Source: Wickerhamiella versatilis (lineage: Eukaryota). From it: DNA of 23,695 nt. The stretch is taken from positions 62,001 to 85,695 of the forward strand of contig JAQOWU010000004.1 in NCBI GenBank assembly GCA_030867685.1. The letters run 5' to 3'. This document shows, in pieces, positions 1,564 through 23,695 of the stretch. Under the pieces are notes generated by a model. The model made no database searches, was not told the origin of the DNA, and saw only the letters and a list, made by a program, of their open reading frames with translations. Position 1 is the stretch's first letter; each line of letters begins with the position of its first letter. The position numbers were made by a program, and so were the translations under genes.

Positions 1564-1601
1564 ATCTTGCATTGTCCAACCAGTCTCGGGTAGTGAAGTG
1601 G
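1564..1601 (-). repeat. Interstitial near-full copy of the 41-bp unit
   Basis: ATCTTGCATTGTCCAACCAGTCTCGGGTAGTGAAGTGG, 37/38 match to the reverse complement of the terminal array. Confidence 0.95.
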
Positions 1602-1714: not shown

Positions 1715-1738
1715 TGGACAATGCAAGATAGCCCACTT
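1715..1738 (+). repeat. Interstitial partial copy of the 41-bp unit
   Basis: TGGACAATGCAAGATAGCCCACTT, 24/24 match. Confidence 0.92.
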
Positions 1739-5033: not shown

Positions 5034-5376
5034 GAACATCGGGCGGCATCAACTACCATGATAATACTGGCTATAGGGATAGCGGCTTATTTATAATTTG
5101 ATTTTATAATAATTGCAATTAAATATTTAAATTTTTTTTATCTCACATGGATAGTTATATTCCTGGGGGCTTTTTCTTACTGCACTATTTCTATCCTGTT
5201 ACACTGCAAGATAGGTGGATATATTTATATATGGTCAAGCCAGCTAATTAATTACTTGATACTATTATAATACAACCAAAAAGAATGGCTTCGTGAGGCA
5301 TTGAGTAGTCTAACACGTAACCATAAATCTCGATTACACGAACCGAGCCAGTGCTTTGTTAATGTAAAGCTGAAAT

Positions 5377-5406
5377 CCACTTCACTACCTGGAAAAGATA
5401 GCCCAC
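5377..5406 (+). repeat. Internally deleted copy of the 41-bp unit
   Basis: CCACTTCACTACCTG (15/15) + GAA + AAGATAGCCCAC (12/12). Preceded by GCTGAAAT, as at 19959. Confidence 0.85.
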
Positions 5407-5516
5407 AGTTAAGACTCACATCCTCTTCGTGAATGGTTTTATCAAGCATGCCGCAATTGGCTCTTTTGATGTTCCCTATATCATGAACAATGTTTCTACA
5501 AAATTCCCTATATACC

Positions 5517-5555
5517 GGGCTCTCTTGCATTGTTCAACAAGTTTCAAGCAGTGAA
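5517..5555 (-). repeat. Decayed interstitial copy of the 41-bp unit
   Basis: GGGCTCTCTTGCATTGTTCAACAAGTTTCAAGCAGTGAA vs GGGCTATCTTGCATTGTCCAACCAGTCTCAGGTAGTGAA, 33/39 ungapped. Confidence 0.85.
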
Positions 5556-5677
5556 ACGAAATACAATATATGCATGAATGAACCTAATAGCGTAAATATA
5601 CATACAATGAGAAAGCATCTAGCAACAAATTCCATCATCTATCATTACCGATACTATGGTCGCCTAATGTCTGTACA

Positions 5678-6796
5678 CTAAATTGGTCCTAATGGCTCTT
5701 CGCTGCAGGCTAAGTTGCATTGGCGATAAATACGTGTTTCTCCAGGATAGAAGCTACCAGTAACACAGTGTAGCACTCCATGATTATTGAATAGTGCAAG
5801 GTCTCCCTCGTCCCAATCCACTGGGTAGACAAGTTCAGGCGCGATACCTGGACGCTGTAAGCGGTACACTATCTCACGTACCTCTGAAAGGTCGTCCATG
5901 ACAGTGCCATTAGCACAGTGTAGTTTCTCGACAGCCAATGGATGAATTTGCAGGGCCAGCTTACCTGTCACTGGATTGCGCCAGCACATAGGAAGAATCT
6001 TAATTTTGGAATCATCAATGGGTGGTAACTGTTCATAGCCCAGTTCGAGCCCCTGGGATATCATTCCAAGTCCATTCGAGCGAGACTTCGCATTTGAGAT
6101 CCAGATGTATGGGTGTGGGGCATACTGTACTCTTGTGGTACGAGCAAACTTCTTATCTTTCTCTGACAACAAGTCATACATGGTATATGAACTCACAAAT
6201 GCGGTTGACCCGCGTGGTACTCTGAGCGACTCGCTAGTGCCATCGTCGTAAAGTAGATTCTGGTGCCCAGCCTTGGGAACCCGAACTGCCATCAGTGAGG
6301 TTACACGGGGCGGGTTGAAGTCATAAAATGCAGCATCTATGTGCCACCGGAAGAAGCGCGTATACTCCCGGTCATTTTCCGGGGTGATATATGTTCTGTG
6401 GAATGTCCGATGGTGGGGATGCTTCAACGTAAAATTCTCGAGTCCCTCGAACTCAGCAACAGAGCCGTTGCCAATTACTTGAACTTGTGGCTGATGCGGT
6501 ATAGTTTTGGCATTGTGCTGAAGGATGGATTTTGCTGCATGGATTGTCTTTCCATGGCCATATTCCTGGACGCCAGGATCGAATAATCTCGTAAGCTCAT
6601 ATTGAGCTTTGGGTGAAAGGTGGTGCTGGCCCTTGAAGAGAATAAGTTGATTTTCATAAAGTGCATTTTTTATTACCTCAAAATCTGATGAAGTGATGTT
6701 CTCCAGGTCTGCACCCTGGAGTTCTGCACCGAAACTCACTTTGGAATGATTAGGAGTGGGGAGTGGATGCACAGTTATGCAGGATGTTGCGGCCAT
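5678..6796 (-). CDS. xanA: Fe(II)/alpha-ketoglutarate-dependent xanthine dioxygenase (TauD/TfdA family)
   Basis: Likely ATG 6796 (MAATS). Metal-binding HxD in RWHIDAA and distal His in FNNHGVLHCVTG. LKHPHHRTFH, YAPHPYIW and YRQCNLA resemble fungal XanA. Divergent from a purine permease. Confidence 0.85.
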   Translation of the reverse strand: MAATSCITVHPLPTPNHSKVSFGAELQGADLENITSSDFEVIKNALYENQLILFKGQHHLSPKAQYELTRLFDPGVQEYGHGKTIHAAKSILQHNAKTIPHQPQVQVIGNGSVAEFEGLENFTLKHPHHRTFHRTYITPENDREYTRFFRWHIDAAFYDFNPPRVTSLMAVRVPKAGHQNLLYDDGTSESLRVPRGSTAFVSSYTMYDLLSEKDKKFARTTRVQYAPHPYIWISNAKSRSNGLGMISQGLELGYEQLPPIDDSKIKILPMCWRNPVTGKLALQIHPLAVEKLHCANGTVMDDLSEVREIVYRLQRPGIAPELVYPVDWDEGDLALFNNHGVLHCVTGSFYPGETRIYRQCNLACSEEPLGPI

Positions 6797-7106
6797 GATT
6801 GACACTAGTAGCCTCTTTGCACAATAGTCAAGCAACCCAAGTTAGCTAGTCAGATACAAATGTGAATCAAAAAGCAAATATAAAAGGCTGCTGACATTGC
6901 TAGGCTTAGTCCATGGTGGGTTGGGAAGCTTGTCTCATTTAGGAGATGGGGTAAAGCAACCTTAAAAGAACTCAGCCATAATTTTTATGTAGTATACCCC
7001 TCTTAATTGTTGGTTTATTTTGCCCTAGCATGAGCCTGGTTGGATACAACTACGCTGCAGGGTGAAGGACCTGGGTCATGTGCCACTATCATTAGGGCTA
7101 GGTCTA

Positions 7107-7150
7107 CGCGGAGAGTCTTATCTTCTCCACGATATCTCTCACCGCGGAGA
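7107..7150. promoter_or_regulatory. Candidate regulatory cluster in the xanA/permease divergent promoter (CGG-containing repeats around a GATA site)
   Basis: CGCGGAGA at 7107 and 7143, an inverted TCTCCACG at 7124, and CTTATC (GATAAG on the minus strand) at 7117. Consistent with Zn2Cys6 plus GATA-factor control of purine catabolism, but not proven. Confidence 0.3.
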
Positions 7151-7342
7151 ATAAGAGGTAATAGAGTGGTGGCAATTGTTGATACAGACTAGCGAAAAAA
7201 TCCAATTAATCCCATCTTATACAGTGTAAATGCACAGCGGTAACAGTAAAGTGGTGAAGGACGATTCATTCAACCTGAAGTTAACGCCCCTTAGTAACCT
7301 CCGGTTATTTCACCCTGCTTAATCTACCTCTGGCAAGATAGA

Positions 7343-9184
7343 ATGTTGTTCAACAATAATTGTTCCAATTCCAACTCTATTTGGCATAACTTTAGGGTAT
7401 CTGCTAAGAACAAAAAGCACAAAGGTCGTGCAAACCCCCTACCCCCACCAGCTCAGCATGCACCCACAAATACGTTGCGACGGATGTGGAGGGAGATATA
7501 CCATATGTTTTGCACTTATGATGGTATTATCGGTGATGAAGTGGACTACTTCTCTTTATTTAGGCCCACTATCCCCTTCACTAAATGGAAATCACAGGCC
7601 CCTCACTTTTTTTCTTTACACTCGCGTCCCCCCCTACTATTGACAATAATTCTCGGATTGCAACACGCAATGGCAATGATGGGAGGTCTTATATCTCCAC
7701 CTCTGATGTTTGCCTCAGCTGCTAACTTAGAGGATCCAGATAAAGAGTATCTCGTATCTTGCGCATTGCTGGGTGCGGGTATTCTTACCCTGATTCAACT
7801 TCTGAGGGTCCACATTCCCTACACGAAGCTCTATATTGGGACGGGTATGATCTCTGTTTTGGGAGAGTCATTTGGTGTAGTTCCAATTTTTCAAGATATG
7901 GTTCCTCGAATGTATGCAAGTGGCTTTTGCCCCACAGATGGTGATGGTAATAAGCTGCCATGTAGAGAAGCTTATGGCGCCTTTTTAGCAACAGGAGCGC
8001 TCTGTGCGCTGCTTCAGGTGGTATTATCGCTTTTACCACCTCGTATACTTGAACGTGTTTTTCCACCGATAGTTGTAGGGGCAGTGGTTCTGCTAACCGG
8101 TGCAGCACTCGCAGCGTCAGGTGTACAGGATTGGGCAGGTGGCTCAAGCTGCATGTCTGGCGGACTCTGCAATTCCAGTGTACCTAATCATACACACCCA
8201 TGGGGATCTGGGCAATGGATTGGACTGGGATTCGTGGTTATAGTTGCTATAATACTATGTGACAAGTTTGGTTCCCCGATCATGAAGTCCTGCTCTATTT
8301 TTATTGGCCTTTTGGTGGGATGCATCGTCGCAGCTGCAACAGGCTACTTCCAGCACGAATCCATTGATGTGGCTCCTAACGGCCAATTTGTGTGGGTGAG
8401 GACTTTCCCATTGAAGCTTTATGGTCCTGCAGTTCTCCCATTGTTAGCTATATACCTCGTCCAGATTATGGAGTCTATTGGCGATATAACGGCCTCAGCC
8501 GATGTTTCACGGCTCGAAGTTGAGGGTGAGGAATTTGAATCGCGGGTTCAAGGCGGCCTAATGGCCTCAGGCTTGGCCTCTATTGTAGGGGGATTAATGA
8601 CCTTGACACCAATGGCGACATTTGCTCAAAACAATGCAGTAATATCGATGACTCAAGCCCCTTCACGATGTGTGGGCTTCGCCTGTTGTTTTTTTCTCAT
8701 CATCATGGGCGTTGTGGGCAAGTTTAGTGCAGCCATTGTTGCCATTCCACACGCAATTATAGGAGGAATGACTACTTTTCTTTTCACAGCTGTGGGAGTG
8801 AGTGGGCTGGCCATTGTGTCTAAATCCACTTTTAACCGTCGTGACAGAATGGTCCTCGGAATAGGCCTGACCTTTGGCTTTGCTTCGCTAATGGTTCCGT
8901 CTTGGTTCTCAGGAGTATTCACATATAAGGGAGATAATGTTGGCAAGCAGGGTTTCATAAATGCTATTGTAACTGTTGTCGAAACTCCATATTGCATATG
9001 TGGTATAGCAGGAGCATTGGCAAATGTTTTCTTGCCGCCCCAGGACGATATGCCAGAGTTACTCGAAGGGAAGGATCCTCATCCTGATAAGATCCCCAGT
9101 AAGTGGGAGACGGTGAAGTCCAGGATGCAAAAAGGATTTGATATTGAGCCTACTGGCAAGACGGTTACGGTTCTTCCTGATTAG
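7343..9184 (+). CDS. NCS2/NAT family uric acid-xanthine permease (UapA/UapC-like)
   Basis: LGLQHAMAM (TMS1 QH), FPPIVVG, MESIGDITAS and the NAT signature region FAQNNAVISMTQ. The start is uncertain; a small 5' intron is possible. Confidence 0.92.
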   Translation: MLFNNNCSNSNSIWHNFRVSAKNKKHKGRANPLPPPAQHAPTNTLRRMWREIYHMFCTYDGIIGDEVDYFSLFRPTIPFTKWKSQAPHFFSLHSRPPLLLTIILGLQHAMAMMGGLISPPLMFASAANLEDPDKEYLVSCALLGAGILTLIQLLRVHIPYTKLYIGTGMISVLGESFGVVPIFQDMVPRMYASGFCPTDGDGNKLPCREAYGAFLATGALCALLQVVLSLLPPRILERVFPPIVVGAVVLLTGAALAASGVQDWAGGSSCMSGGLCNSSVPNHTHPWGSGQWIGLGFVVIVAIILCDKFGSPIMKSCSIFIGLLVGCIVAAATGYFQHESIDVAPNGQFVWVRTFPLKLYGPAVLPLLAIYLVQIMESIGDITASADVSRLEVEGEEFESRVQGGLMASGLASIVGGLMTLTPMATFAQNNAVISMTQAPSRCVGFACCFFLIIMGVVGKFSAAIVAIPHAIIGGMTTFLFTAVGVSGLAIVSKSTFNRRDRMVLGIGLTFGFASLMVPSWFSGVFTYKGDNVGKQGFINAIVTVVETPYCICGIAGALANVFLPPQDDMPELLEGKDPHPDKIPSKWETVKSRMQKGFDIEPTGKTVTVLPD

Positions 9185-9538
9185 ACTCGGTATACCTTTT
9201 TTATTAGGTACTACCATAGGTTGAAAAGGTATAGGTTTCAGGATTATATTTACCAAGACATCATGCATCTTCTGGAAGCTAGTTGGCGTGGCTTATCCAT
9301 TGGTATCTCATAATCGGGCAGTAAAGACGAACGGACTTCATAATAAGACCCTACTGTTTATGGCGTCATTCCTGTGGGTTTGGGTTGTATCGTTGTTAAT
9401 TATTCCATAATTCCACGGAGCTAGAGGTATTATCTAAATCAGTACAAAAAAGGAGCAAGACTATTTTCTTTTGTTTGCAGGCATAAGCTGGAGCTTTAAG
9501 TTTGCTACAATCAGAGAAAAGCATTATCCCACAAAAGA

Positions 9539-12253
9539 TTAGGGCGTACCAGCAGAGTAGAAGCTCGAACTTATGTTAAATCCTGAGGCAGAAACAATAG
9601 GTGTATTAGAAGAATACACACTGTACAACGGACTGCTTGAAACAGTTTTGCTGGAACGTGCCGAGCTCCCAGTTGAACTGTAGCGCGGTGCGGACATTGA
9701 TAACGTCGAGCTCAGCCCACATGTATCTTTACAAGGTACAATATCTGCATTAGGCCCACTACAAGAAGGTACCTCAATTTCCGTCAGCGGATTATAGTAT
9801 TCATCAAGGAAAAGATTACGGTACCTCTCATTGACCTCTTCGACCATCAATGTTGTGTTAAAAGGGCATTTTTCTGCATCAGTCGTAGCGCCAGTCAAGT
9901 CCATCAATGAGGTGAGTGATGATTGCAATAGCACATTCCAGTCGTTTATTGTGCTTGAATTAATCCATTGCAAGTCATATACACCATGGTCATAGGTATC
10001 GAAGGGTGCCCACCAGGCAAACAATACCATATCCATTCTTTCCCATAAATTATTCGCCTGGCAAGGTTTTACACAGCTGATTTGGGAGATGGCGTCAGTA
10101 AATTTGATCATCTCCCCCTCGCCTTCTGAGTAAAATTTCTGCGCTTCGGTTCCCAAGGGGAAGTTGCCGTTTGCAGCATCATATTTATCAGGATGAAGAC
10201 CACTCAGCGCACTATTCACAGCCGATGCCGCAGAGAGTGCTGCACTGTAAGCATTGCTAAAGGAATATGTCTTTGTGGGCGCGAATGTACCAGGAGCTGA
10301 TTGGGTGGGGGTTATCGAGGCTGTTGCAGTAGGATAAGCCGTGACATCCATTGTAGTTGTTGCATTGGGAGTAGCAGTACATCTGTCGGTACACTTACAA
10401 TCGTATCCTCCGCTGGCAAAGCAAGTCACAGTGGGTATGGTCGATGGCTTCACTTCTTCGCCACTCCAAATAGATCCATATACCTCATTGACACTTATAA
10501 TCGCTTCACTAATATCCACGGGGCATGCCTGTGGAACAGTCCTAGCATTTTGGAAGTTCATTAATGTTGATAATGGGTTTTCAAATAATGCTGTCCATTG
10601 ATCTACCGTAGAGACGTTAAGCCATTGGTCATCAAGTATGTCATGGCCGTACGCCTTAAGGGGGTCGTACCAATACTTCATTACGGTGTTCAACGACGCA
10701 AACAAGTTGAACGCCTGGCACGGTTGAATACAACCTATAGTTGTAACAGCCTCTGCAAAAGCCTTCATTTGGCTTTCACTCTCTGCATATATCTTTTTAG
10801 CATCCTCAGCACTAATGCGACTACTAGTATCATTAGCATGAAGGCTTGCAAGTTTGTTTCCCGCTTGCTGGGCCGCACGCAGCGCATTGTCGTAGACATC
10901 TGAGCCCGTAATTACCGGGGCGGTACAGGGAGAAGACGTTGTTGTTGGTTGATCCCATGGCCAATCAAAGCTGGTGGGAAGAGTGATTGGAGGCAAGGTA
11001 AACGGGAAAGGAAACCCACCTCCAGTGGCATCTTTGGTCGTCGTTGGCACGCTGTATCCACTAGGGGTCACTGCTTTAGGTATTGAGGACTCAATTGGCT
11101 CAACATTGGAATCACTGCTTTGCTTTACAGGAGCAATAGCATATTCATCGTTGTCCAGATCTACCGTCAAAGAAATCTGGCGCAGGATAGGATCTCCAAG
11201 AATATACATACTGGTGAAAAACTCATTTAGTCCCCGAGTCACTGAAAGTGTGTACACACCATCCTCAGCCTCGATAACCATATCTTTTGGTGGGACCTGA
11301 ATCGTAACCCCAGAGAAAGTCAGATTAAGCGGAGGCTTACCGGCCAAATCAGCATTCTGAGATACGTATGTTTGACTGACCTGTTCCCACTGAAAACCAT
11401 ATACTTCTGCAATGTTGTCAGCTGCGGTTTGGGGAAGCATTATCAATGAAGTGCCCGTATCCCAGATTCCCTCGAAATGCTCGCCATCGTCAGTTTCTGC
11501 ATCTACAGACAAATAATTGGCAGAGGATATACCCTCGTACGTTCTTGGAAGCTTGTAAAGGGGGCCATCATACTTTGCAGAATCAACCCCGCCGAAAATA
11601 ATGGTGGCCTCTGTAGAGTCTTCGTTTGATGTGAAGATTGTGAACGAGTTTGAGTCAATAGTACCTTGATCCTTAAGTCGCTGAACATACGGAGTATATG
11701 ACGGATCACGAGTCTCTGCTTTTTTCACAGAGCAACCGAATATTCCCATATTGTCCGGAAAGTACTGGGGACTGGACTGATTAGCAAAGGCAAAAGGATA
11801 GTTAGCGACTGATGCACCACCAACAGAGATGGTGTCACTGGCCCAGGATCCCGAGATTTGATTCGAGCCATCGCCATATGCAGCTTTGAAATTATTGTTA
11901 CTCCAGTGATAAGCTGATGACTTGGCTGCCTTCTCTGGGTCAAACGTGTGCTCACTGCCAGCAGCAGTAGAAAACCCCCAGGTGTCACTACTTCCCGTAT
12001 CGAAAATGCCAGTCAATTCTTGGTCGCCTACCTTATAATCAATAAGGTACTCAATACTAGTGAAGTTAAGGACAGATTCAGGGAGCCTGACATGAGCGGA
12101 CCCTGGATTATGAGTACGTCGTCTAGACGTACGAACCTTCTTTGCAGTGAGTTCAATGGACCCAGGTCCAGTTCCACTATTGGAACGCTTTTCAGGTGCA
12201 GCTAGTGCAGTGATGGCCGTGACGACCACCCCCAAAAGAACTGATCCTCGCAT
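9539..12253 (-). CDS. Secreted pepsin-like aspartic protease with a long C-terminal extension of two Cys-containing repeated domains and Ser/Thr-rich linkers
   Basis: Signal peptide from ATG 12253 (MRGSVLLGVVVTAITALA) and a KR processing site. Catalytic motifs FDTGSSDTW and WDTGTS, flap YGDGS, IIFGGVDSAKYDG and YILGDPILR. Confidence 0.9.
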   Translation of the reverse strand: MRGSVLLGVVVTAITALAAPEKRSNSGTGPGSIELTAKKVRTSRRRTHNPGSAHVRLPESVLNFTSIEYLIDYKVGDQELTGIFDTGSSDTWGFSTAAGSEHTFDPEKAAKSSAYHWSNNNFKAAYGDGSNQISGSWASDTISVGGASVANYPFAFANQSSPQYFPDNMGIFGCSVKKAETRDPSYTPYVQRLKDQGTIDSNSFTIFTSNEDSTEATIIFGGVDSAKYDGPLYKLPRTYEGISSANYLSVDAETDDGEHFEGIWDTGTSLIMLPQTAADNIAEVYGFQWEQVSQTYVSQNADLAGKPPLNLTFSGVTIQVPPKDMVIEAEDGVYTLSVTRGLNEFFTSMYILGDPILRQISLTVDLDNDEYAIAPVKQSSDSNVEPIESSIPKAVTPSGYSVPTTTKDATGGGFPFPFTLPPITLPTSFDWPWDQPTTTSSPCTAPVITGSDVYDNALRAAQQAGNKLASLHANDTSSRISAEDAKKIYAESESQMKAFAEAVTTIGCIQPCQAFNLFASLNTVMKYWYDPLKAYGHDILDDQWLNVSTVDQWTALFENPLSTLMNFQNARTVPQACPVDISEAIISVNEVYGSIWSGEEVKPSTIPTVTCFASGGYDCKCTDRCTATPNATTTMDVTAYPTATASITPTQSAPGTFAPTKTYSFSNAYSAALSAASAVNSALSGLHPDKYDAANGNFPLGTEAQKFYSEGEGEMIKFTDAISQISCVKPCQANNLWERMDMVLFAWWAPFDTYDHGVYDLQWINSSTINDWNVLLQSSLTSLMDLTGATTDAEKCPFNTTLMVEEVNERYRNLFLDEYYNPLTEIEVPSCSGPNADIVPCKDTCGLSSTLSMSAPRYSSTGSSARSSKTVSSSPLYSVYSSNTPIVSASGFNISSSFYSAGTP

Positions 12254-12816
12254 ACTGGACAAGCTAAGGCTCTATAGTGCTGGCATCGCCATTCGAATAT
12301 ATATAAGCGAGTGACAAGCTACGTCGATCATTGTCGGGTCAAGGGTATAATTAAATTAATATTGCAATTGCCGATACGGTCAGTGATCTGCATCGGTATT
12401 CCGACAATCTGGTGTAATCGAGAACAAGAGAAATCTCATTGACCCAACTGTGTACAGCTTTTCCCCCCAATCCTTTGCAGCCTACGTTCTTCTTCACACA
12501 AAATCCCCTGTCTTTTCCCTAAGAAAGTGACGATCTCGATCTACATTGACTTACTAATTGTCAAATAGTGGCCCAGCCCTCTGTGGGATGGAAGCCACAC
12601 ATAAGATATGATATAATTAACAACCGGTGGCCGCATATCAAGTTTTATACGTATCACACAAGAACTATTCTACGGTTGCATCTCCATAATCGGATATGCA
12701 GGATGCGTTACGGGTAGGATGCTGTATTGCTTATCAGCTCCTAGAGTTAAACCTAACCCATGTTGATCATAATGAGTACAGAGACTTTCGGCACATGCAC
12801 TAGGATTCAAAGCCAA

Positions 12817-12855
12817 ACTGGTTGGGCAACGCATGATAGCACACTTCACTACCTG
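12817..12855 (+). repeat. Decayed interstitial copy of the 41-bp unit
   Basis: ACTGGTTGGGCAACGCATGATAGCACACTTCACTACCTG, 35/39 ungapped. Confidence 0.9.
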
Positions 12856-12949
12856 CCACTGATTAGGTACATGATAGTCCTTAAATAATAACAATGATCC
12901 TGCATTCCTGTTGACCAGACCTTGGGTTTCTAATAAAGTTGGAAGGAAT

Positions 12950-13540
12950 TTAGCTATATGTATACATACCGGGGTTATGTGCTAAAAACCTCTGTTGATG
13001 ATAAACAAAAGCTGTTGAAAAATCTCTCCCAAAATCTGTGATACTTCGTGCTGGCTTTCCCACCACATCTTTGAAGTCATCGGTAACTAGGTTACCCCAG
13101 TTCGTGCTGTACGCCATAAAGTAACCACAAAGCAAGTTCACACTCCATTCGTCTATTCCAAAGCTTACCATCGTCTTCCAACTATCATCTATGGTTGCAG
13201 GTTAATTAGCAACCTTCTTGTGGATAGAATTGCCAATTGTCTCAGTAATCTGATTCATAGATAACGACTCCAGCCCTATTATAGTGTAAATCTTCCCTTC
13301 ATGCCCTTCTGGGTTTGCCAATATACACGCGGCAAATTCGGCTATGTCGCGAGAGTCAATGAGTCCCATTCGACTATCAGCTAATGGACAATTGAGTGCA
13401 CCCGTCTCAACTATTAACTGAGCAGATCCTAATAAGCTTTGCATGAAAAAATGTGGCTTGATTATCGTATATGGAATTTCTGAAGTGATCAGTTCGGCAT
13501 TTGACAAGCCATGCAGTCTGCTATTTCCGTAATCAAACAT
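12950..13540 (-). pseudogene. NmrA-like / atypical SDR NAD(P)-binding protein remnant, bacterial-like
   Basis: ORFs 13202..13540 and 12950..13171 are in the same frame, separated by one TAA at 13202-13204 (KKVAN*PATIDDSWKTM). Motifs: YTIIKPHFFMQSL, IDSRDIAEFAACILANPEGHEGKIYTIIG and VTDDFKDVVGKPARSITDFGRD. The N-terminal Rossmann glycine motif is absent. Confidence 0.8.
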
Positions 13541-14177
13541 AAATATAATCTCTCGTTCTTCCCGTAGCTGTTAACTCGTAAACCTGCTGTAATCACAGTA
13601 CATGCTTGTTGTGCTTGTGCTTGTTTATACGAATCGGTAGATTCGTTAGTTCCAATCTATTTTCCAGGCCATAGCTACAGTCTCATGGATCGATAAGTGA
13701 TTGCCTTTTGTTATCTCACTTATTTTCTGAAGGACACAAAAAAAAGAATACTTATGTATCTGTGCAGCATGTTACTAAGTAATTACTCACAAAGTACACC
13801 TGCGATTATGCTAACGGATTACGTCGCGTGACTTTACAATTAATACTATTCTTGGTATTTCTGGATGGATCGTCGAATAACTAGTAGAAATTGACATCGG
13901 AATCGTTTGCTTCTGTATTCTATACGTATAGCGGAGCGCGGCGGCACTGGAGCCAGTGGTGGAGGCAGGAGGTTTTGACATTTCTGCCTGCGTCCTGACC
14001 GAACATGGGTTAGCACGAAATACATGTGAAGTATTTCACTAAATGTCCAGGGACAAATAGAAGTATTGAACTATTAACGTGAATATTATTGATTAAGCGG
14101 CAATTAAGGACCTTCCCATGGTCATGGGTGACTTAGGCTCTTATTTGAAGCGATATTACGTTGACCAGAGAAGAGCT

Positions 14178-15290
14178 CTAAACGTCTTCACCAACCCTCT
14201 TATTCAAATATTTATCAATTGCTCCTTGATCGTTGGGATTATGAAGATGAGTCGGGAATTTGGTTTCCACTATAAAGTCTGCCAAAAAAACAAGGTCCTC
14301 TCCAAGAGGAATATATTTCGATGACTTGAAAGCTGAAAGTGCTTTTATCTGTATCTCGGCATTAGTTTCATTTCCAGCCATGATTAACTTGCCATAGTGC
14401 GGCAGAGTATCCGCTTTAGGCCCCCCGATCACATCGAGCGGATTATTTGGAACGTCCGAAGAGTAGCTTCCCCACACATCTCCATAGTTGACAAAACTGA
14501 TAAAGTTGGTCGCTTTTCCTGTAGCGCTGGAATTTTGCGGGAATCCGGCGCCCTCAAAAGCCACACCACCAAATCCAAACTGCCGGCCAACATACTCAGC
14601 CTCACCTGCCCCCGTCGAGTGCCCAGTGACGTAAATATCTGACACAGACCTTTTCTCGCCTTTTGCTACTACGTAAACAAGACGGCAGAATGCAGCAGCA
14701 TTCTTTTGTCCTTCATTTACCGTGCCACTTACGCTTCCTTCATCTTGAACAAGGCTTCCTAGGTCGGTAGGAAGGTTCTCTATTTGAAAGCCAGAGAATG
14801 CGATGATAATTTTGTCAGTTTCACTTACAAAAACGCGTGCATTCATACCGGTAGCAGTGTCGTACGCGCTGAGCTGCTTGTTAGAACCGGGCACATTATA
14901 TGGTTTCAAGCTCGAATTAGAGGGAACCGACGGCACGGAGTAAAAAGTGGACTTCTCGACAGCTAGTGATGCCTGCATCAATTGGTCAATGGTTGGTGCA
15001 TTAGCGTCGTTATTTTGTTCACTGGCGTCAACTGCTGGTACTGGGGCATTATTGGCATTGAGAAGATCGTAGAAAGCAGGAGCAGCGGCTTGAGAGCCCC
15101 CTTTAGGCGCCCATATCTCGCTTAATACAATATTTGCGGGTGAATACTCGTAGAGAGCCTGTAATACTTCCTGTAGCATATACACACCACGCAGTTGGCT
15201 GGCAATACTCCCGTCACCATCACGCCTTTCAAGTACAGGGGCAGAGTTCACAGCCAATAGCAGGCTGAAAAACACTGATATGCTGACCAT
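14178..15290 (-). CDS. Secreted lipase-like alpha/beta hydrolase (lipase class 3 / Mbeg1-like)
   Basis: Signal peptide from ATG 15290 (MVSISVFFSLLLAVNSAP) and a dibasic ERR site. Motifs: KIIIAFSG, nucleophile elbow IYVTGHSTG, GVAFEGAG, FVNYGDVW and a C-terminal His (THLH). Confidence 0.8.
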   Translation of the reverse strand: MVSISVFFSLLLAVNSAPVLERRDGDGSIASQLRGVYMLQEVLQALYEYSPANIVLSEIWAPKGGSQAAAPAFYDLLNANNAPVPAVDASEQNNDANAPTIDQLMQASLAVEKSTFYSVPSVPSNSSLKPYNVPGSNKQLSAYDTATGMNARVFVSETDKIIIAFSGFQIENLPTDLGSLVQDEGSVSGTVNEGQKNAAAFCRLVYVVAKGEKRSVSDIYVTGHSTGAGEAEYVGRQFGFGGVAFEGAGFPQNSSATGKATNFISFVNYGDVWGSYSSDVPNNPLDVIGGPKADTLPHYGKLIMAGNETNAEIQIKALSAFKSSKYIPLGEDLVFLADFIVETKFPTHLHNPNDQGAIDKYLNKRVGEDV

Positions 15291-16082
15291 TGTCGATAAA
15301 CAAGAAATTTCGATCACATGCTGTGCGTTCACTTTATATGCATGGATATGACCTACCCCCCGACAATACGCATCTCATCCCTTAACCAGAGATTACGCAT
15401 CGTGCTAAAACCAAGTTTAGAAGCATGAAGTCTTAATACATCAGAGGCGGCTAGCTAGTAGATATATTTCAGGCATTACGTTGCTCCTTTGACCCAATGG
15501 ATCTTAATATCTTTTATCTTTGGGCGAAGGAAAACGTGGTTTTACCACGCTATGATCCAAAGTAAGGGTTAAAGAGTGAGTTCTGGCTAATTGCTTCTCG
15601 GTATTCAATGGTTTTTATCTTGACTTTCAAATTCTCTTTATGTGAGCCCCCCCGGTCATAGCCCTAAGCCTAAAATATATACACGCATAATTTTTCAAAC
15701 GTGATGTTGTTTTAAAACCTCTTATAAGTATGCTTACACTAAAAAAAGTAATAACCGTTTAAAATTCCACGCACTCCTATCCTAAAAAGTCTGCTCAGCA
15801 AATGCTAGCTCTCAAATCTTATCGTAGTAATGACGATCTACACATGGTACGTACATATCGTGCTACAAGAGATATATCAGAATGATTAGTTATGGGCTCA
15901 ATTATGTCTAAAAAACTGTGAAAACATAGCGCACCTGTGTACACACTCACTATCTGTTTGAGATACCTAGCATCGTCAACCCAGAGGAATATCCAGGCCC
16001 CCCTGCAACTATATTTATGATATGAGATATGGGTTAGTTACAATAATTCAATAAATTAGCTTTGTTTATTTAATGTGTAGAT

Positions 16083-17170
16083 TTGGATGTCACCTTTTCA
16101 ACATTTTTGATTACAGCCTCAGCGATCATTAATAGGAAGTACCCAATGAGTAATATTAGACTTATCCAGGATGCGCTGTTTTCAATAGCCTATCAATACA
16201 ATGAAATAGAAGACGGCCAAAACGACTCGGACTCCAAATGGAAGATAAATAAGGCATTCTTTAGTTGCAGACAATCGAGAATCCTGAAATATTTGATCCC
16301 TCAAATAAACAGCTATTGCCAAGTTGGTAACGCAAAATATGGCTATTACAATGGCGAATGCGAACATAACTTTCGGCCCCGAATCCTCCCTTTTAAGGGC
16401 AAAAGTCGTTACAAAAACAACATAACAACATGCTATTATATTTGCTACGTCGAAGAGTATTTCGACTCTCAATATTGACAAGAGACGACGCCCTCATATT
16501 GCAATCGAAAAGGACGTGTAACCCCCTTATAAATAGCACACTCATCCTAGGATAAAACGTGATGTATATGTCATGTATGCGTAATGCCAAAAACATTAGC
16601 ATTGCCCAACCACGGATGCGAGTTTCAGTCATAGACTCCATCATTTGCCTGCTGTTTTCCTGTGATATTCCTAAATTTTTCGCTGTTGAGGTCTCGAATG
16701 GACAAAGCGTAGTTTGTGGTGGTGCAAGCCATAACAATGGGTCGCTTGGTTACGGGTCTGGAACTATTAATATACTGCAGTCTGATATATTCGAGTATTC
16801 GAATGGATCATTAATCGATATTTCCCATGATGGTCCAGCTAACTATGTTGTAGCAGGGCCATATGTGAGAAGTTACTATAAGAATGATAGTGGTGGATTG
16901 TACTATGTGGATCGTGGGAGCGAGCTTATACTCAGAGAATTGTTTAAGTTTTTATATTTTTCAGAGTGGAATGTGAAAAGAAATAGGCAGCTTACACACA
17001 ATGGAAACTCTGTGTTCTACGTGGATAGTGCGTCATGTGAAGTGCTGACAGATCCACCAGAAGAGTTTGGGAAAACAGGCCAAACCGTTAGTTTTTCTGT
17101 GAAGCCTATTGATCCTCTGTACCACCAAATATTGGTAGCAAGCCATTCACGACGGCCTAAGACTCCATGA
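16083..17170 (+). other. Two consecutive unassigned ORFs (131 and 203 codons), possibly one decayed orphan gene
   Basis: Same-strand ORFs in different frames in AT-rich DNA. No motif recognised. Confidence 0.25.
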
Positions 17171-17201
17171 ATCTCTTCAAACAATGAGAAGGCATACATA
17201 T

Positions 17202-17217
17202 GACATTGCAAGATAGC
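17202..17217 (+). repeat. Short interstitial fragment of the 41-bp unit
   Basis: GACATTGCAAGATAGC, 15/16 match. Confidence 0.55.
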
Positions 17218-17307
17218 TGATAGTTAATAGCTGACTGAATAGTAAATTGAAGCTCCATGTTAAATATTGTCACCAAATTGGATATTCAGCTGTAAAGCAA
17301 TCATGGC

Positions 17308-17535
17308 TTATAGTTCAGTGTGCAAGCGGGCGTCCAGGCGCTTATGGTGTCCAGGTAACAGTACCCACAGTATGAACCCCATTACACAAGCCAGAGAGGA
17401 AATACCAATACAGAAATACATTGTCCCCCGCCATGCCCTTAATTCTGGATCTGGATGGTTTTGCTGTTGAGCCAGCTGATGAGTGACAGTGCCGGCAATC
17501 CCCAAAAAAATGGAAATACCATAATGGGATAATAG
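17308..17535 (-). pseudogene. C-terminal remnant of an ATR1-like (DHA2) MFS transporter
   Basis: In-frame HYGISIFLGIAGTVTHQL...LRAWRGTMYFCIGISSLACVMGFILW resembles the last two TM segments of ATR1-family proteins (NYSISxGLGxAGTV...GYRGAxYxGIG). No upstream part of the gene is visible. Confidence 0.6.
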
Positions 17536-17715
17536 GTTTCGCTCTAGTACTTTCGACTATATTGTGCGCATATCACTTTTTTCATCACCTTCGCCAAGAT
17601 AATACAGACGTGGAAATTGGGTTTGAAAATCAAGATATCGAGGACAGATTATCTCATATTACTCACGAGAATCCGACTTAAGCCATATTGAATTCATATT
17701 TAGAAATAAGCTGTT

Positions 17716-17750
17716 CCTGAGACTGTGTGGACAATGCAAGATAGCCCACT
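17716..17750 (+). repeat. Interstitial partial copy of the 41-bp unit
   Basis: CCTGAGACTGTGTGGACAATGCAAGATAGCCCACT, 33/35 match. Confidence 0.93.
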
Positions 17751-18717
17751 CTTCTGACCTTATGATGATGAGAACTAGTAACGCTTAGGTCCAGGAAGAT
17801 GATTCAACATCTCGCTATGACAGTTATTTATAAGAATAGCATTATCGATGGCGTCGTAAATTCAGCGTACATGCGGATGCTATTGCCGTCATATTGCGGG
17901 GTTTGAAGATTTCGTTGGCAATTCGAGATTGACGCGTACAAAAAGCTCTGTGTTCAATTTTTTTTTCACATAATATCAATAAATCTATGCTTCGCTAGCG
18001 TTCCTTGGTCTTTCAGATTTCGACAGATGTCCACCAGCGATTACACAGGCACGAGACTACTTTAATCATTCTTTCGAAACTGATTTGCTGAAGACTTAGA
18101 ACATAGTTGACAAGAATCATAGTAAGAGGATTCGCATTTGTAGGTTGCCTTAGATAATGGTAGTGGACCGGAAGTGAGCCGAAGATCTTCGGTTATACCT
18201 GCTACCTTAGGGATTAGATAATATTTTATATTCCTAAAGCTATATGAGAATTATTGATTGTATCCATCTCAAACTCGTCGTCCTGCTCATCTTGAGGTAG
18301 CTGCTTAGATGTTGCATAAGTTTTATCTTGAGAAGTTGGTTGCAACAGGTATGCTACCGATATGAAAAAGAAAATATATACGGTATTCTATCTTCTATGT
18401 CTCTGCACTATTATTATTTTGATCATGGTTGAATTTTCTGGTGATAGAAACAGCCCCGTTGAGATATGTACTAGTGGAACGACATGCTCTATTATCTTAG
18501 TACAAAATACTATATATCCTAATTTGGCAATATAAGAATGAAGCATTCAACTAGTATACCTAGGTGCGTGTTGTCATAGTTATATGGATCTTTCCCGTAT
18601 ATAATGATGGTATTAAGGGAAATGAATGAATGTTGATAGGGGCTTGATCCATGGCTTATTTAGTGGATTTGTGGTCGAAGCTCTTAATGAGCTACGTACA
18701 CTTGTGTACAAAATGTT

Positions 18718-19701
18718 TTAGATTACAGGAACATAGTGAGCCAACCAGGAATCCATTACAGATGTTGCTGCATATGTCACATCTCCAAGTCGTAGGAGCA
18801 TTTCTACATGTCCTTCAAATCCCAAACCCTCAAATACGTGAAAGGATACATCAGTTCCTGCAGCGGTCAGAGTCGCAGCTAACTCGATGGCCTGGCGTAT
18901 ATCGCCTTGTCTCTGTACATGAAGGAGTAAAAAAGCACGCGCATTGGGTACATGTGCATGGTAAGTAGGTGACATGGCACGGAGTCTTGTTGGCACAGTG
19001 CCTAGCGCCTGAATCATATTGTCTGCTACAGGCCCTGGGCTATCTAAAATCTCTGCCGGTGCATTGTAATTGGATCCATCCAGAGATATTACTCCTACTA
19101 TTTTGTTGATGGGCAATCCTGACCGTTCCAGATAGCTCGTGTCAGTGCCAAGCAAAGTGGCAACATGCGCCCCTGAGCTGTGTCCCATCAGCACAATTCG
19201 TTCAGGATCAAGGTGAAACTCAGTCGCATTCTGTACTAGAAATGCCACAGATTCTGCTACCTCCTGCACCTGCTCCTCGACCGAAACTAAAGGAAATAGC
19301 GTGTAGTTGATGGTGGCAAATGCATAGCCCTCAGCAGTCAAATGGCCCACTTTGGCTGAGCCAGTGCTGTCCAAGTATGTACCAGATTTCCAACTACCAC
19401 CATGGATAAATACGATAATAGGGGCTGAGGATGATGCTGTGCTCTCCCATAAGCGAAGGCGTTGACTGTCGCGCTTTCCATATTTCAGATCCTTACCACC
19501 AGTAGGCTGGTCTAAATTCATCTGGGACATGAGATCCTGCACCCTATCTATCGAAATGTCATCCTCCGCAATTCCCTGATACAACTTCAACTCTCCCGTA
19601 ATCTCTTTTCTTTGAGGTCGTCTCGAATCGGTACTTATGGTGCTATCATTAGACACCGGCTGTGTGGATATTGAACTAGTTATTGTAGGAGAATCGCACA
19701 T
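18718..19701 (-). CDS. Alpha/beta hydrolase, carboxylesterase/arylformamidase-like (HSL-like family)
   Basis: IIVFIHGGSW oxyanion motif, GYAFATINY and nucleophile IVLMGHSSGAH, plus a C-terminal GH. Start at ATG 19701 (MCDS) or ATG 19806. Confidence 0.85.
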   Translation of the reverse strand: MCDSPTITSSISTQPVSNDSTISTDSRRPQRKEITGELKLYQGIAEDDISIDRVQDLMSQMNLDQPTGGKDLKYGKRDSQRLRLWESTASSSAPIIVFIHGGSWKSGTYLDSTGSAKVGHLTAEGYAFATINYTLFPLVSVEEQVQEVAESVAFLVQNATEFHLDPERIVLMGHSSGAHVATLLGTDTSYLERSGLPINKIVGVISLDGSNYNAPAEILDSPGPVADNMIQALGTVPTRLRAMSPTYHAHVPNARAFLLLHVQRQGDIRQAIELAATLTAAGTDVSFHVFEGLGFEGHVEMLLRLGDVTYAATSVMDSWLAHYVPVI

Positions 19702-19966
19702 GCTGAAAAATGCTACCGCACCACTTGAAAAGTAATTTGCATTATACTCCGAAGGATGTAGACCTTTTAGTAATACTGATTGCTGCCTCCTAACCACTAA
19801 CGTCATCAATGCATAACACTCCTAGTAAAAGGAAGGGGAGTTTGTGTTAATTAAGAGATATTAATAATTAAGAAATATTTGTAGAGATTATCAGCTGGTT
19901 TCGATATTTTGCTATGATCTTCTATAGCTGAGCCATTGATGCAGAGGATAGGACCTGTGCTGAAAT

Positions 19967-20012
19967 CCACTTCACTACCTGAGACTGGTTGGACAATGCA
20001 AGATACCCCACT
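19967..20012 (+). repeat. One full unit plus 5 nt of the 41-bp repeat (CCACT...CCACT)
   Basis: 45/46 match (G>C at 20006), terminally redundant CCACT, preceded by GCTGAAAT. Confidence 0.96.
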
Positions 20013-20395
20013 AAGCAGGAAGTCAGTCATCGGTCTGTTTGTTGATTAGTGCCAGTGACATCATTATCTAGAGGAAAATTCTAAGGCGTAAAGAGAGATG
20101 CTCAGAGCCTGACATTAGCCATTCAGCCCCAAAATTCTAACTATGAGCCATCCGAGAACAGAGATCTGAAATATATTCTTTCCTCCAGCACCAACTTCCT
20201 CCCAAATCACCCATCCAGGTAAATTACACCGGCCACGTTATCATCCCTCTAATTATACTAGTTTAACACCGACATAACGGTGATGAAAGTTTACCCTTTG
20301 AGTTTAGTATTTGATAAATGGCTATATGTAATAATTTATAATAAGGATCAGAGAATCAGTAATAAAATATCTCAAACATGCCAAGCAAGCTTCAT

Positions 20396-22147
20396 TCAGC
20401 CTGCTCCATATTTAGCTACTGCCTTATCATGAATCTCTTTCCCTCTTAGCCTCATGTAAATAGGCAGAGGTATAAGCATGAATGATATAAATGTGAGAAT
20501 TGTGCAGCCCCATCCTACCGGATAACCATCAATAGCAGTGTTGTTGTACATGTAACGAGCAAACAATGGGAATGCTGCAGCAAGTAAAGCCCTAGCAACA
20601 GAATTTGAAGCGAATGCTGAAGCTATTAAGTGCGAAGGATACAGATTAGCCAGGAATGACAGGTAAGATTGAAAAGCAAGCCAGAGAGAGCCACCAAAAA
20701 TGGCCAGACCAACCACCGAAGGGAACCAATGGACACCCGGATGTGAAGACCAGCCATATATTAAGAGTCCCAATGGGTACATTACTGCAGAAACGATTGC
20801 AGTATTACCGAAAATAGCGTACGGATCTACCGCTTTTGATTCACGCGGATTAACGCTTCCATCTCTTTTCAGTGGTGATATCAGGAAATACTGCAAATAG
20901 GGCGTATAAAGGAAACCCATTATGACAATCCCTGCTATAAGCCCAAGGTACATGAGACCCTGCTGTACTGCATTGAAATTATATACGCTGCCATATGATA
21001 TAGGGACGGCTTCGAAAAACAGGTACATGATAGCATACATCAGCCCTAGATGTAGATCAATAAGTGCAAGGACTGGTTCACGTATAGTTATCTCTATTGG
21101 TTTCCAAAATATTTCCTTGAGAACTTGTTGCGTGCTCTGGTTCCTGAGCTGTATATCCCCTGGGGCGACAATATTAGGATTCTTCAATCGACGACGGAGA
21201 CTCCTTGCTTTTTTCATCAGGATAGCCTGGTGACTTGTTTCAGGGAAAAGGAACAGTATGGCCACAAGAACTGCTCCAGCTTGGATCAATAGATACCAGA
21301 AAGCCCAGCGCCATGAGTTGTGTTGGACCAGCGCACCACCAATCAATGGCCCAATACAAGGTCCAAGAACAGCCCCAGCAGACCAAGCAATAAGCGCATA
21401 TGTTACAAATGGGAAACCAAATATGTCATCGTAAGTAGCACCGCCAGTTGCCAACGGTGGGCTGGCCATACACCCACCCAAGAGGCGAAGCACAGCGAAA
21501 GGGGCTATGTGATTGCATAGGGCAGTTGGAATTTGTAAAGCACAAAAGACAAGCTGGCAGAACAGGTAAATCCATAATCTCCCACCAAAGAGGGGATTGT
21601 CACTCATTGGGCTGAACCACAATGACGCAATTCCATACCCCCACACATAAAGAGATAACCCAAGCGTTACCTTGACTTCACTAGTTTGGAAGTGCCCAAT
21701 AAGCTGCTGTTCTGCCGGAGTGAACAACGCTGAACCCATGTATAAGGAAGCTGTAATCAACGCCATAACAAGAGCCACAATAGCCTTTTTTGGAAACGGC
21801 CAGTTACGGGGATTTGCAACATCATCTGGTCCATCCCAATCGACAATAATATGGTTCACGGCATCGGGATCATCGTGGCCCTTTTTCCGTCTGTAGTCTG
21901 CTGCAGAAGCGTACCTATCACCAACTATGGCCGCATCAATTTCGTTTTGGGTGGATTTTGCCTGGGAATTCCAGGATGCACTAGAGGCTGTATCTTGGTC
22001 AAAATTTTCCTCCAAATATCTTTTGGGTACTGTATAGCTCTCTAGCTCAAACAACGGTTTGCAAAAGCGCCGTCCTGATATTTCATAAATAAAAATTCCC
22101 ACACTACTGTCACGAAGTAGAGAGCTTATGCTATAAGCGATGCTCAT
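20396..22147 (-). CDS. MFS multidrug:H+ antiporter, DHA1 family (FLR1/MDR1/Caf5-like)
   Basis: IIVDWDGPDDVANPRNWP, YMGSALFTP, LGLSLYVWGYG, SPPLATGGA, LGPCIGPLIGG, FPETS, YLFFEAVPI, ASAFASN and GYPVGWG. Confidence 0.92.
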   Translation of the reverse strand: MSIAYSISSLLRDSSVGIFIYEISGRRFCKPLFELESYTVPKRYLEENFDQDTASSASWNSQAKSTQNEIDAAIVGDRYASAADYRRKKGHDDPDAVNHIIVDWDGPDDVANPRNWPFPKKAIVALVMALITASLYMGSALFTPAEQQLIGHFQTSEVKVTLGLSLYVWGYGIASLWFSPMSDNPLFGGRLWIYLFCQLVFCALQIPTALCNHIAPFAVLRLLGGCMASPPLATGGATYDDIFGFPFVTYALIAWSAGAVLGPCIGPLIGGALVQHNSWRWAFWYLLIQAGAVLVAILFLFPETSHQAILMKKARSLRRRLKNPNIVAPGDIQLRNQSTQQVLKEIFWKPIEITIREPVLALIDLHLGLMYAIMYLFFEAVPISYGSVYNFNAVQQGLMYLGLIAGIVIMGFLYTPYLQYFLISPLKRDGSVNPRESKAVDPYAIFGNTAIVSAVMYPLGLLIYGWSSHPGVHWFPSVVGLAIFGGSLWLAFQSYLSFLANLYPSHLIASAFASNSVARALLAAAFPLFARYMYNNTAIDGYPVGWGCTILTFISFMLIPLPIYMRLRGKEIHDKAVAKYGAG

Positions 22148-22689
22148 TTAGAAAACATTTAGGATATGACACAATCTTTTAACGCTAATCCTGATGACCT
22201 TACAACCGTACAGATAGACAGACTAACATTAGATAATATTACCAATATTGCAGAAATATATTACAAGCATGGATAGTCGCTCCTCATTGTTCTGACGTGT
22301 GATTTACTATTTTAGCTAGTACCATGAGCAGATTCGTCATCCGGGATACCAATAATATTGTCGAAGTTTTTTTTCCATTTTAGAACTTTGTCTGGTCCAC
22401 ACTTGTCGAGGAGGAAATAACCGTTAGGCGAGGCAAACCTAGTCTCACGCAAGGTACGCGGACTAAGCGTAACCTTTGTCAGTCCTGGTGGCGTAGGGGT
22501 AACCCTGGCTAAGTGATTTAGGCAACTGGGAGACGGTACACTTCACTTTCCATAGCAGTTGCTGGGTTTGGATTTGTCTCGAGCATCTTCCACGTGCCGG
22601 TTATCCTCAAGACCGAAGACACGTCAAGCAATGCTCAGAAAGTGAAGGATGGGTTAGCAATATCCAAAGTGAACGTGGAGGTGTCGTCA

Positions 22690-22727
22690 TCTCTGCATGA
22701 TTGGTAATATTATCAATCATGCAGAGA
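22690..22727. repeat. 38-bp near-perfect palindrome
   Basis: TCTCTGCATGATTGGTAAT|ATTATCAATCATGCAGAGA, 19-bp arms, no spacer, one G-T mismatch. Confidence 0.85.
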
Positions 22728-22946
22728 GAGGCTGAGTGACGTTGAGACTGCTGTGCCGCTCACGGTCATATACACGTACTTTTCGCATTTGGTAGCATAA
22801 CTTTTTTTGATATTTGAGATCATTTACTTGTGTACCAAAATAACTGTTGGACTTGGGACCAACAAGTCCAAGATACCTGCCCTATGTAAGGTACAATTGC
22901 CTCTAAGAACGTGCAGTGGCAATCACAACAGGGTAGGGGTGTATTC

Positions 22947-22967
22947 GACAATGCAAGATAGCCCACT
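22947..22967 (+). repeat. Interstitial partial copy of the 41-bp unit
   Basis: GACAATGCAAGATAGCCCACT, 21/21 match. Confidence 0.9.
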
Positions 22968-23048
22968 CCGGGTAGGGTTGGAAAGAGGGCTTATATTAAT
23001 TGTGATTTAACGTGAATATTGCATTTCATATTCATTATTATATAAAAG

Positions 23049-23228
23049 ATGTCTATTACGCTTGTCACTGGAGCGAACCAAGGACTGGGACTCGCATTGA
23101 TTGTTGCCCTAGCTGAACACGATTCAAGTTCTAAGTTGATTCTGGCATCTCGAAACCTCGTTAACGGGCAAAAAGCGGCTGCTGATCTCCAAAAGAAGGG
23201 ATACACGAATATTGATACTGTACAGCTT
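23049..23228 (+). pseudogene. Short-chain dehydrogenase/reductase truncated after 60 codons by the tandem array
   Basis: MSITLVTGANQGLG (TGxxxGxG), LILASRN and IDTVQL, then the frame runs into the repeat where the conserved LD(V) Asp is expected. Confidence 0.88.
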
Positions 23229-23695
23229 GGTTGGACAATGCAAGATAGCCCACTTCACTACCTGAGACTGGTTGGACAATGCAAGATAGCCCACTTCACT
23301 ACCTGAGACTGGTTGGACAATGCAAGATAGCCCACTTCACTACCTGAGACTGGTTGGACAATGCAAGATAGCCCACTTCACTACCTGAGACTGGTTGGAC
23401 AATGCAAGATAGCCCACTTCACTACCTGAGACTGGTTGGACAATGCAAGATAGCCCACTTCACTACCTGAGACTGGTTGGACAATGCAAGATAGCCCACT
23501 TCACTACCTGAGACTGGTTGGACAATGCAAGATAGCCCACTTCACTACCTGAGACTGGTTGGACAATGCAAGATAGCCCACTTCACTACCTGAGACTGGT
23601 TGGACAATGCAAGATAGCCCACTTCACTACCTGAGACTGGTTGGACAATGCAAGATAGCCCACTTCACTACCTGAGACTGGTTGGACAATGCAAG
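23228..23695 (+). repeat. Perfect tandem array of a 41-bp unit, about 11.4 copies to the window end; candidate telomere
   Basis: GGACAAT recurs at 23233, 23274, 23315 and onward (period 41). No variants or spacers seen. The array itself is certain; the telomere role is inferred. Confidence 0.95.

Follow-up and report, generated by a model that had tools for sequence, protein, structure and literature searches.

A 41-bp repeat array on a truncated gene in a Wickerhamiella/Starmerella yeast: a candidate telomere with scattered single copies of its unit

The window, by which we mean the whole stretch of 23,695 nucleotides analysed here, carries genes for an acyltransferase, two MFS transporters, a TauD dioxygenase, a purine permease, a secreted-type aspartyl protease and an esterase, and it ends in a truncated short-chain dehydrogenase gene followed by a tandem array. 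Judged from the predicted products, this gene content is typical of a fungal subtelomere. An earlier note on this DNA had likewise described subtelomere-type genes proximal to the array, and the MFS, TauD, permease, protease, esterase and acyltransferase genes, together with an NmrA-like pseudogene, bear it out. The closest named relatives of the purine permease are those of Starmerella bombicola (64% identity) and Wickerhamiella sorbophila (54%), with other relatives reaching up to 76%; because these relatives belong to Starmerella and Wickerhamiella, we regard the host as a yeast of the Wickerhamiella/Starmerella (W/S) clade. Scans for RNA families (Rfam) and for tRNAs returned nothing in the window, neither a telomerase RNA nor a tRNA-linked element. 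The gene remnants and the array are placed as follows:

12953-13570, minus strand: NmrA-like gene remnant, covering profile positions 138-239 of 298 only and with a broken frame; a pseudogene.
23049-23227, plus strand: 5' fragment (~60 codons) of a carbonyl-reductase-like short-chain dehydrogenase (from the ORF, Pfam and solved relatives).
23228-23695, plus strand: tandem array of a 41-bp unit, 11.4 copies (Tandem Repeats Finder and raw sequence); the plus strand runs 5' to 3' outward.

The acyltransferase gene (3-1149, minus strand), which has a TRI-like N-terminal domain, is represented by two overlapping ORFs in different frames that run off the window start, a split that may be explained by a frameshift, by an intron or by the gene being a pseudogene. 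The aspartyl protease (9539-12253, minus strand, 904 aa) shows two long C-terminal repeats of a Cys-containing domain and a long Ser/Thr-rich (Ser-rich) tail, and Pfam names the protease domain only.

Tandem Repeats Finder described 23228-23695 as one array with a period of 41, 11.4 copies, 100% matches, 0% indels and a score of 936, and in the raw sequence the last base of the window still lies within it. This agrees with the earlier note, which had reported a homogeneous 41-bp array running to the window end. Our own count of the unit on the outward (plus) strand gave the same 9 G, 11 C, 12 A and 9 T as before, and thus the same lack of G bias. A G-rich or G/T-rich outward strand with G tracts is absent, since the unit holds no GGG and TGGTTGG is its sole G/T cluster. 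A G bias of the outward strand is shared by almost all telomerase products, and the 41-bp unit departs from it. Three units of the plus strand (23228-23350) fold at -2.8 kcal/mol as compared with -11.4 +/- 2.7 kcal/mol for shuffled sequences (z = +3.2), all 200 shuffles folding at least as well, and the minus strand gave z = +1.8. The poor folding of the outward strand fits a sequence that needs to be single-stranded, either as a template or as an overhang.

The abrupt start of the array within a gene, another observation of the earlier note, was seen alike in the ORF, in the Pfam match and in the alignment with solved relatives. The ORF opens with an ATG at 23049, encodes 60 codons of a short-chain dehydrogenase, enters the repeat and stops 25 codons further. 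Pfam adh_short matches it at profile positions 2-49 of 195 only, and the nearest solved relatives, carbonyl reductases of 274-288 aa, align only to residue 52; the start of the Rossmann fold is retained before the array. As ~60 of roughly 275 codons are left, about three quarters of the gene are missing. Judging from the family pattern, the native dehydrogenase would have continued ..VQLD.. past the break. The break between gene and array lies at ~23227-23229, and up to 3-5 nt (CTTGG/TTG, 23224-23229) can be assigned to either side. The array begins at unit phase 1-2 on the truncated ORF with no sequence between them. As far as the sequence can tell, an array joined without a gap to a gene that is cut near codon 60, with at most a few bases in common, is the signature of chromosome healing.

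Outside the array, eight to nine single or partial copies of the unit were found in the window, all of them intergenic and on both strands (nine sites, seven on the plus strand and two on the minus strand). Their phases were assigned by objective alignment to a concatemer of the 41-bp unit:

1564-1601, minus strand: single copy of 38 nt, 97% identity, phases 23-19, start CCACT.
1715-1738, plus strand: single copy of 24 nt, 100% identity, phases 5-28, end GCCCACTT.
5377-5406, plus strand: internally deleted copy, phases 23-37 and then 15-26, left flank GCTGAAAT.
5517-5555, minus strand: degenerate copy of 39 nt, 85% identity, phases 27-24.
12817-12855, plus strand: degenerate copy of 39 nt, 90% identity, phases 40-37, possibly reaching into a second unit.
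17202-17217, plus strand: weak partial copy of 16 nt, one mismatch, phases 7-22.
17716-17750, plus strand: single copy of 35 nt, phases 34-27, TGTGTGG replacing TGGTTGG, end GCCCACT.
19967-20012, plus strand: longest single copy, 46 nt = 41+5, phases 23 to 27, CCACT at both ends, one mismatch.
22947-22967, plus strand: partial copy of 21 nt, 100% identity, phases 7-27, end GCCCACT.

The 21-mer core of the unit matched the window 15 times against 0.00 expected from 100 shuffles, four of the 15 matches lying outside the array, and the other half of the unit matched 13 times, twice outside the array. The length of the copies in the window has a ceiling of 46 nt (41+5; n = 9). Three of the nine have their start at the first C of CCACT (phase 23), and four of the nine end at phases 26-28 (...GCCCACT), the other five ending at phases 19, 22, 24, 37 and 37. 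The clustering of ends at phases 26-28 has a nominal P of 0.0027, which becomes 0.11 after correction for all 41 phases; within the window it is therefore not significant after correction, and the window by itself is not decisive. The fixed 3' end and the variable 5' start of the single copies are found on the strand that runs 5' to 3' outward in the array.

The copies at 5377 and 19967 have an identical 8-nt left flank, GCTGAAAT, which is not part of the unit (5369-5391 and 19959-19981). This common flank is a hint either of duplicate sites or of a flank copied from RNA adjoining the template, as in vertebrate TERC-ITS. An origin of the copies from a MITE or LTR element was rejected because no longer common flanking repeat was found in the window, only the 8-nt flank in one pair, and because the two inverted pairs have opposite topology (1564 minus with 1715 plus, as against 5377 plus with 5517 minus). 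CCACT was also discarded as a target-site duplication, since it is identical at every site. The 46-nt copy at 19967-20012 was considered as the template of a telomerase RNA and set aside: it differs from the array by a mismatch, and its location is a 590-bp spacer separating two genes.

The copy at 22947, the nearest to the array, has G-rich GGGTAGGG motifs on both sides (22930-22938 and 22969-22977), ~39 nt apart. These motifs, AGGGTAGGG and CGGGTAGGG, look like 1.5 units of a G-richer variant repeat. On the opposite strand the CGGGTAGGG motif has a 7-of-9 match in the present unit and an 8-of-9 match in the 1564 copy. The flanking G-rich motif may descend from an earlier, TAGGG-like telomere unit, or it may reflect an inversion. 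Motifs like GGGTAGGG matched the window six times as compared with 2.0 expected, a number reached by one of 100 shuffles, and this weak enrichment is too slight to build on.

Twenty-four public runs matched the window. Of the sampled words, a fraction of 0.70-0.76 is present in three metagenome runs and one of 0.18-0.27 in several 'organism A' runs, which have ~10-11 Mb of contigs. We compared window positions 3400-23320 with the contigs of two metagenomes (X1 and X3) and two 'organism A' isolates (X4 and X21) at a minimum likeness of 85. Being contigs, these show presence and joins, not molecule ends; X1 and X3 may include the source sample of the window itself, and joints at <95% likeness in the metagenomes can stem from repeats or from other organisms and have supportive weight only.

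The 41-bp unit was present in the contigs of all four runs, which come from four studies. Summed contig depth, whose baseline was ~106-150 in X1 and X3 and ~50 in X4 and X21, rose to 3215, 3538, 755 and 753 (X1, X3, X4 and X21, respectively) in the bin with the 46-nt copy and to 11402, 14350, 2613 and 2616 in the last bin, which holds one partial copy and 2.3 array units. Contigs that fit two unit-bearing places numbered 238 of 565 in X1, 271 of 586 in X3, 100 of 253 in X4 and 99 of 253 in X21. The consensus of the flanks reached an agreement of only 0.4-0.6, which means that the flanks of the unit copies differ, and the unit has some 100 different flanks in the 10.2-Mb isolate assembly. Three chromosomes are reported for S. 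batistae and for each of three other W/S species (PMC13376923, PMC12983215). If the chromosome number of our yeast is like that of those species, most junctions of the unit cannot be chromosome ends. Nor is the motif confined to one chromosome end, as in the Microstromatales type, since one unit with many flanks was found in the four runs. From the depth in X4 we calculated (755-52) x 665/46 divided by ~50, that is, ~200 unit equivalents, an upper bound because contigs with flanks are counted twice; very roughly, then, a genome would hold ~100-200 unit equivalents at most.

Among the best-supported classes of copy starts and ends listed, beyond which 469 further rows exist, where a copy end is one after which an unlike flank follows, the end class 23295 (phase 27) was seen in 12, 16, 6 and 9 contigs of X1, X3, X4 and X21, respectively, in independent agreement with the anatomy of the window copies. 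It was followed among the listed classes by ends at 23293 (11 and 14 contigs), 23291 (6 and 7) and 23288 (6), and further by 23254 (5 contigs, X4) and 23294 (4 contigs, X21). The listed copy starts were at phases 20, 30-31, 34, 36 and 39, with two to six contigs each. In X1 and X3 some tandem joints had variant spacings ('goes back 37, 39, 70'), and some units were joined to each other in inverted orientation.

The isolates X4 and X21 match the window at 13855-17232 and 18529-22517 with differences of a few percent; they have an additional 1440 letters at 16082 and no match to 17233-18528. In both, most bins of 3400-13374 are without contig cover; for neither of these parts is this proof of absence. 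The region is strongly strain-variable. The copy at 19967 is present in the 'organism A' isolates, where its site is not empty and contigs stop or start inside it at the same phase; as this copy is conserved in them, it is older than the strain split. The sites of the other copies lie in stretches that are rearranged in the isolates or lack contig cover there. An isolate contig leaves the window at 17232, just past the weak copy at 17202, and another form joins 18558 to the unit in X1 and X3, with a loose end there in X4 and X21. The distal MFS gene block (20025-22684) has two to three times the baseline summed depth in X1 and X3, and at 20495-21035 there are two isolate contigs of unlike divergence (13 and 43 differences). 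The depth of this block and its divergent contigs suggest paralogous copies elsewhere, as expected of subtelomeric families.

One contig each of X1 and X3 follows the window sequence to 21313, inside the MFS gene, and then passes into the unit from phase 26. At this junction (21313 to 23253) the unit has the same polarity as in the array, and CCA is common to both sides. Here, too, the unit follows a truncated gene; the join has supportive weight only. De novo addition onto a broken end requires a gene-to-array join with an overlap of few bases, and this is what is seen at both the dehydrogenase and the MFS junctions.

The earlier note had proposed the array as a candidate telomere. A terminal, telomere-like array on a broken gene stays the best reading of the locus; however, the unit is not specific to ends, as its scattered single copies show. 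The reading we prefer, with a rough probability of 0.55, is that the array would be a telomerase-made telomere formed on a break from a ~46-nt template, the scattered copies being products of single rounds of the same synthesis. The array would then be the telomere, or an inner part of it, added de novo onto a break in the dehydrogenase gene. In each round telomerase would copy 41 nt of an RNA template that, at ~46 nt, would be unusually long; the template would span the unit from phase 23 through 41 to phase 27 and have CCACT at both ends for realignment. The scattered copies would be interstitial telomeric sequences, each left by a single and often incomplete round of templated synthesis that had a broken end as its primer and whose product was afterwards sealed into the chromosome. 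One templated round per copy would account for the 46-nt ceiling, the frequent CCACT start, the mostly GCCCACT end and the occurrence in both orientations, and addition by telomerase would explain why the outward strand carries the fixed 3' end of the copies and why there are two truncated gene-unit junctions. Interstitial telomeric sequences require internal copies in either orientation, and such copies were seen both at the nine window sites and in the public contigs. On this reading the window end would be the chromosome end, telomerase the enzyme, phases 23 and 27 the template boundaries and break repair the origin of the copies.

Several observations speak against the telomerase reading. 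With 9 G against 11 C, the outward strand lacks a G bias, and three G in a row never occur in it; ~100 contigs of the 10.2-Mb assembly carry the unit, as would equally be expected of a dispersed element with a different origin; a contig may stop in any long perfect repeat; and five of the nine copies end outside phases 26-28, the clustering of ends standing at 0.11 after correction. The scattered copies in fact work both ways: their anatomy helps the telomerase reading, yet they also open the way to a rival, a dispersed element that became a minisatellite.

In that case the array would be an internal minisatellite derived from a ~46-nt dispersed element, for instance by slippage between its CCACT ends, and the assembly would have broken within it. 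The unit is indeed dispersed, with 100 of 253 (X4) and 99 of 253 (X21) contigs fitting two places and eight to nine copies within the 23 kb of the window; its composition is not telomere-like, assemblers break at long perfect repeats, and the contigs compared reveal no molecule end. However, the array starts at phase 1-2 and not at phase 23, the usual start of the element, and it does so right against a truncated ORF. The strand asymmetry of the single copies matches the outward polarity of the array, the second truncation point (21313 to 23253) carries the unit in the same polarity, and both the genes present and the variation between strains are as in a subtelomere. On balance we consider an internal minisatellite unlikely.

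Somewhat less likely still is a terminal array made without telomerase, in which recombination or rolling-circle copying (ALT-like) would amplify the unit of a dispersed subtelomeric element. The unit is not G-rich, and rolling-circle copying, too, would yield a perfectly homogeneous array, while the variant tandem spacings and inverted unit-unit joints of X1 and X3 are further points in favour of recombination. Telomerase-negative yeasts with long noncanonical terminal arrays are reported to exist in the Microstromatales (PMC13234504), and the W/S clade is reported to be without many DNA-repair genes (PMC13376923). However, the Microstromatales motifs are mostly specific to one end, whereas here a single unit has many flanks in all four runs. 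Neither the ceiling of one unit plus 5 nt nor the preferred start and end phases of the copies are predicted by recombination, and direct addition onto broken coding sequence with an overlap of few bases fits templated de novo addition better.

An artefact, be it an adapter, a vector or a cycle of the assembly graph traversed many times, would explain 100% identical copies at a contig end, but it is very improbable given that blastn found no match to the unit in 72,556 plasmid records (a match to adapter or vector was what the earlier note had named as a danger), that metagenome, prokaryote-genome and viral contigs likewise held no exact match to its core, that diverged copies occupy fixed genomic places in the window, and that four runs from four studies carry the unit in their contigs, with one copy conserved between strains a few percent apart.

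The template proposed in the telomerase reading has a close parallel in Kluyveromyces lactis, for whose 25-bp repeat Tzfati et al. (2000) reportedly described a 30-nt template bearing a 5-nt repeat at its two ends. The layout is the same, one unit plus 5 nt with a pentamer at both ends; in K. lactis it is experimental, whereas here it is drawn only from the anatomy of genomic copies. More generally, the array is like the long-unit telomeres of budding yeasts in having one long, invariant unit repeated head to tail at a contig end. For such telomeres the template is expected to consist of the unit plus short direct repeats (PMC7857110, PMC8211666), which in yeast telomerase templates measure 1-10 nt (PMC8211666). 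It differs from them in its clade (W/S), in the excess of C over G on the outward strand, in the lack of a G tract and in the abundance of internal single-unit copies.

Concerning length, the unit is less exceptional than the earlier note had claimed. Its benchmark of 23-26 bp for long yeast units is dated, the printed range of putative Saccharomycotina telomeric motifs being 5 nt to 43 nt, and 'much longer' than known units was an overstatement because a putative 43-nt motif, that of Pichia norvegensis, is already in print (Cervenak et al. 2021, PMC7857110). Kluyveromyces, Lachancea kluyveri and Tetrapisispora have units of 25-29 nt, and 28 bp has been called one of the longest telomere units across eukaryotes (PMC8211666). 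At 41 bp our unit is near the top of the printed motif range, not beyond it. Telomere repeats at W/S-clade chromosome ends have been reported by two 2026 papers (PMC13376923, PMC12983215), one of which used motif sizes up to 60 nt; the motifs are in their supplements. Four substrings of the unit, searched on both strands, had no match in the searchable main texts, and within the same main texts we found none describing a 41-bp unit for Starmerella or Wickerhamiella telomeric repeats or telomerase. Exact matches to the unit, first as a 36-mer and then as the 21-mer core, were zero in metagenome contigs, and exact core matches were zero in prokaryote genome contigs and in viral contigs; these collections are uninformative on yeasts.

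In vertebrates, telomerase-made repeats and retrotranscribed telomerase RNA are reported to be inserted at double-strand breaks (PMC8537989), and short interstitial telomeric sequences and TERC-ITS are thought to be inserted by telomerase in break repair (PMC8537989, PMC7215372). The yeast copies are like these in being copies of a candidate telomere unit at internal sites. Vertebrates insert several hexamers, whereas here at most one long unit is found per insertion, so that each copy reveals at which phase it starts and ends, which points to the limits of the template. The GCTGAAAT flank common to two copies is no more than a hint of RNA-derived sequence comparable to TERC-ITS. The complex repeats of chironomids and Anopheles are telomerase-independent terminal arrays. 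As in these and in the Microstromatales (PMC13234504), the candidate terminal repeats of our yeast are long and not G-rich; the Microstromatales arrays, however, are mostly end-specific and accompanied by the loss of TERT (PMC13234504), whereas here one unit occurs at many places.

A further extension of the telomerase reading is rather doubtful. It would make the ~46-nt template one of the longest telomerase templates known, with an outward strand richer in C than in G, and the enzyme a reverse transcriptase that patches breaks genome-wide. Such an enzyme would have left ~50-100 single-template footprints across the genome with a fixed 3' end and a variable 5' start, and the G bias may have been lost by inversion of a TAGGG-like segment within the template. 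If this is true, the template boundaries, and perhaps the RNA adjoining the template (GCTGAAAT flank), would be readable straight from the genome.

Were the array internal or made by recombination, it would be a minisatellite or an ALT-type end and of more limited interest. If the telomerase reading is confirmed, the telomere of this yeast would combine a unit length close to the known maximum with a lack of G bias, in a clade for which the searchable main texts hold no telomere account, and it would put to the test how much drift telomerase templates and telomere-binding proteins allow. More original than the telomere unit, and of greater importance, are the numerous single copies with their phase-bounded ends: if the reading is true, they would be a natural record of the patching of breaks by telomerase or by another RNA-templated activity, in a lineage reported to be poor in DNA-repair genes (PMC13376923), and they would predict the boundaries of the template without biochemistry.
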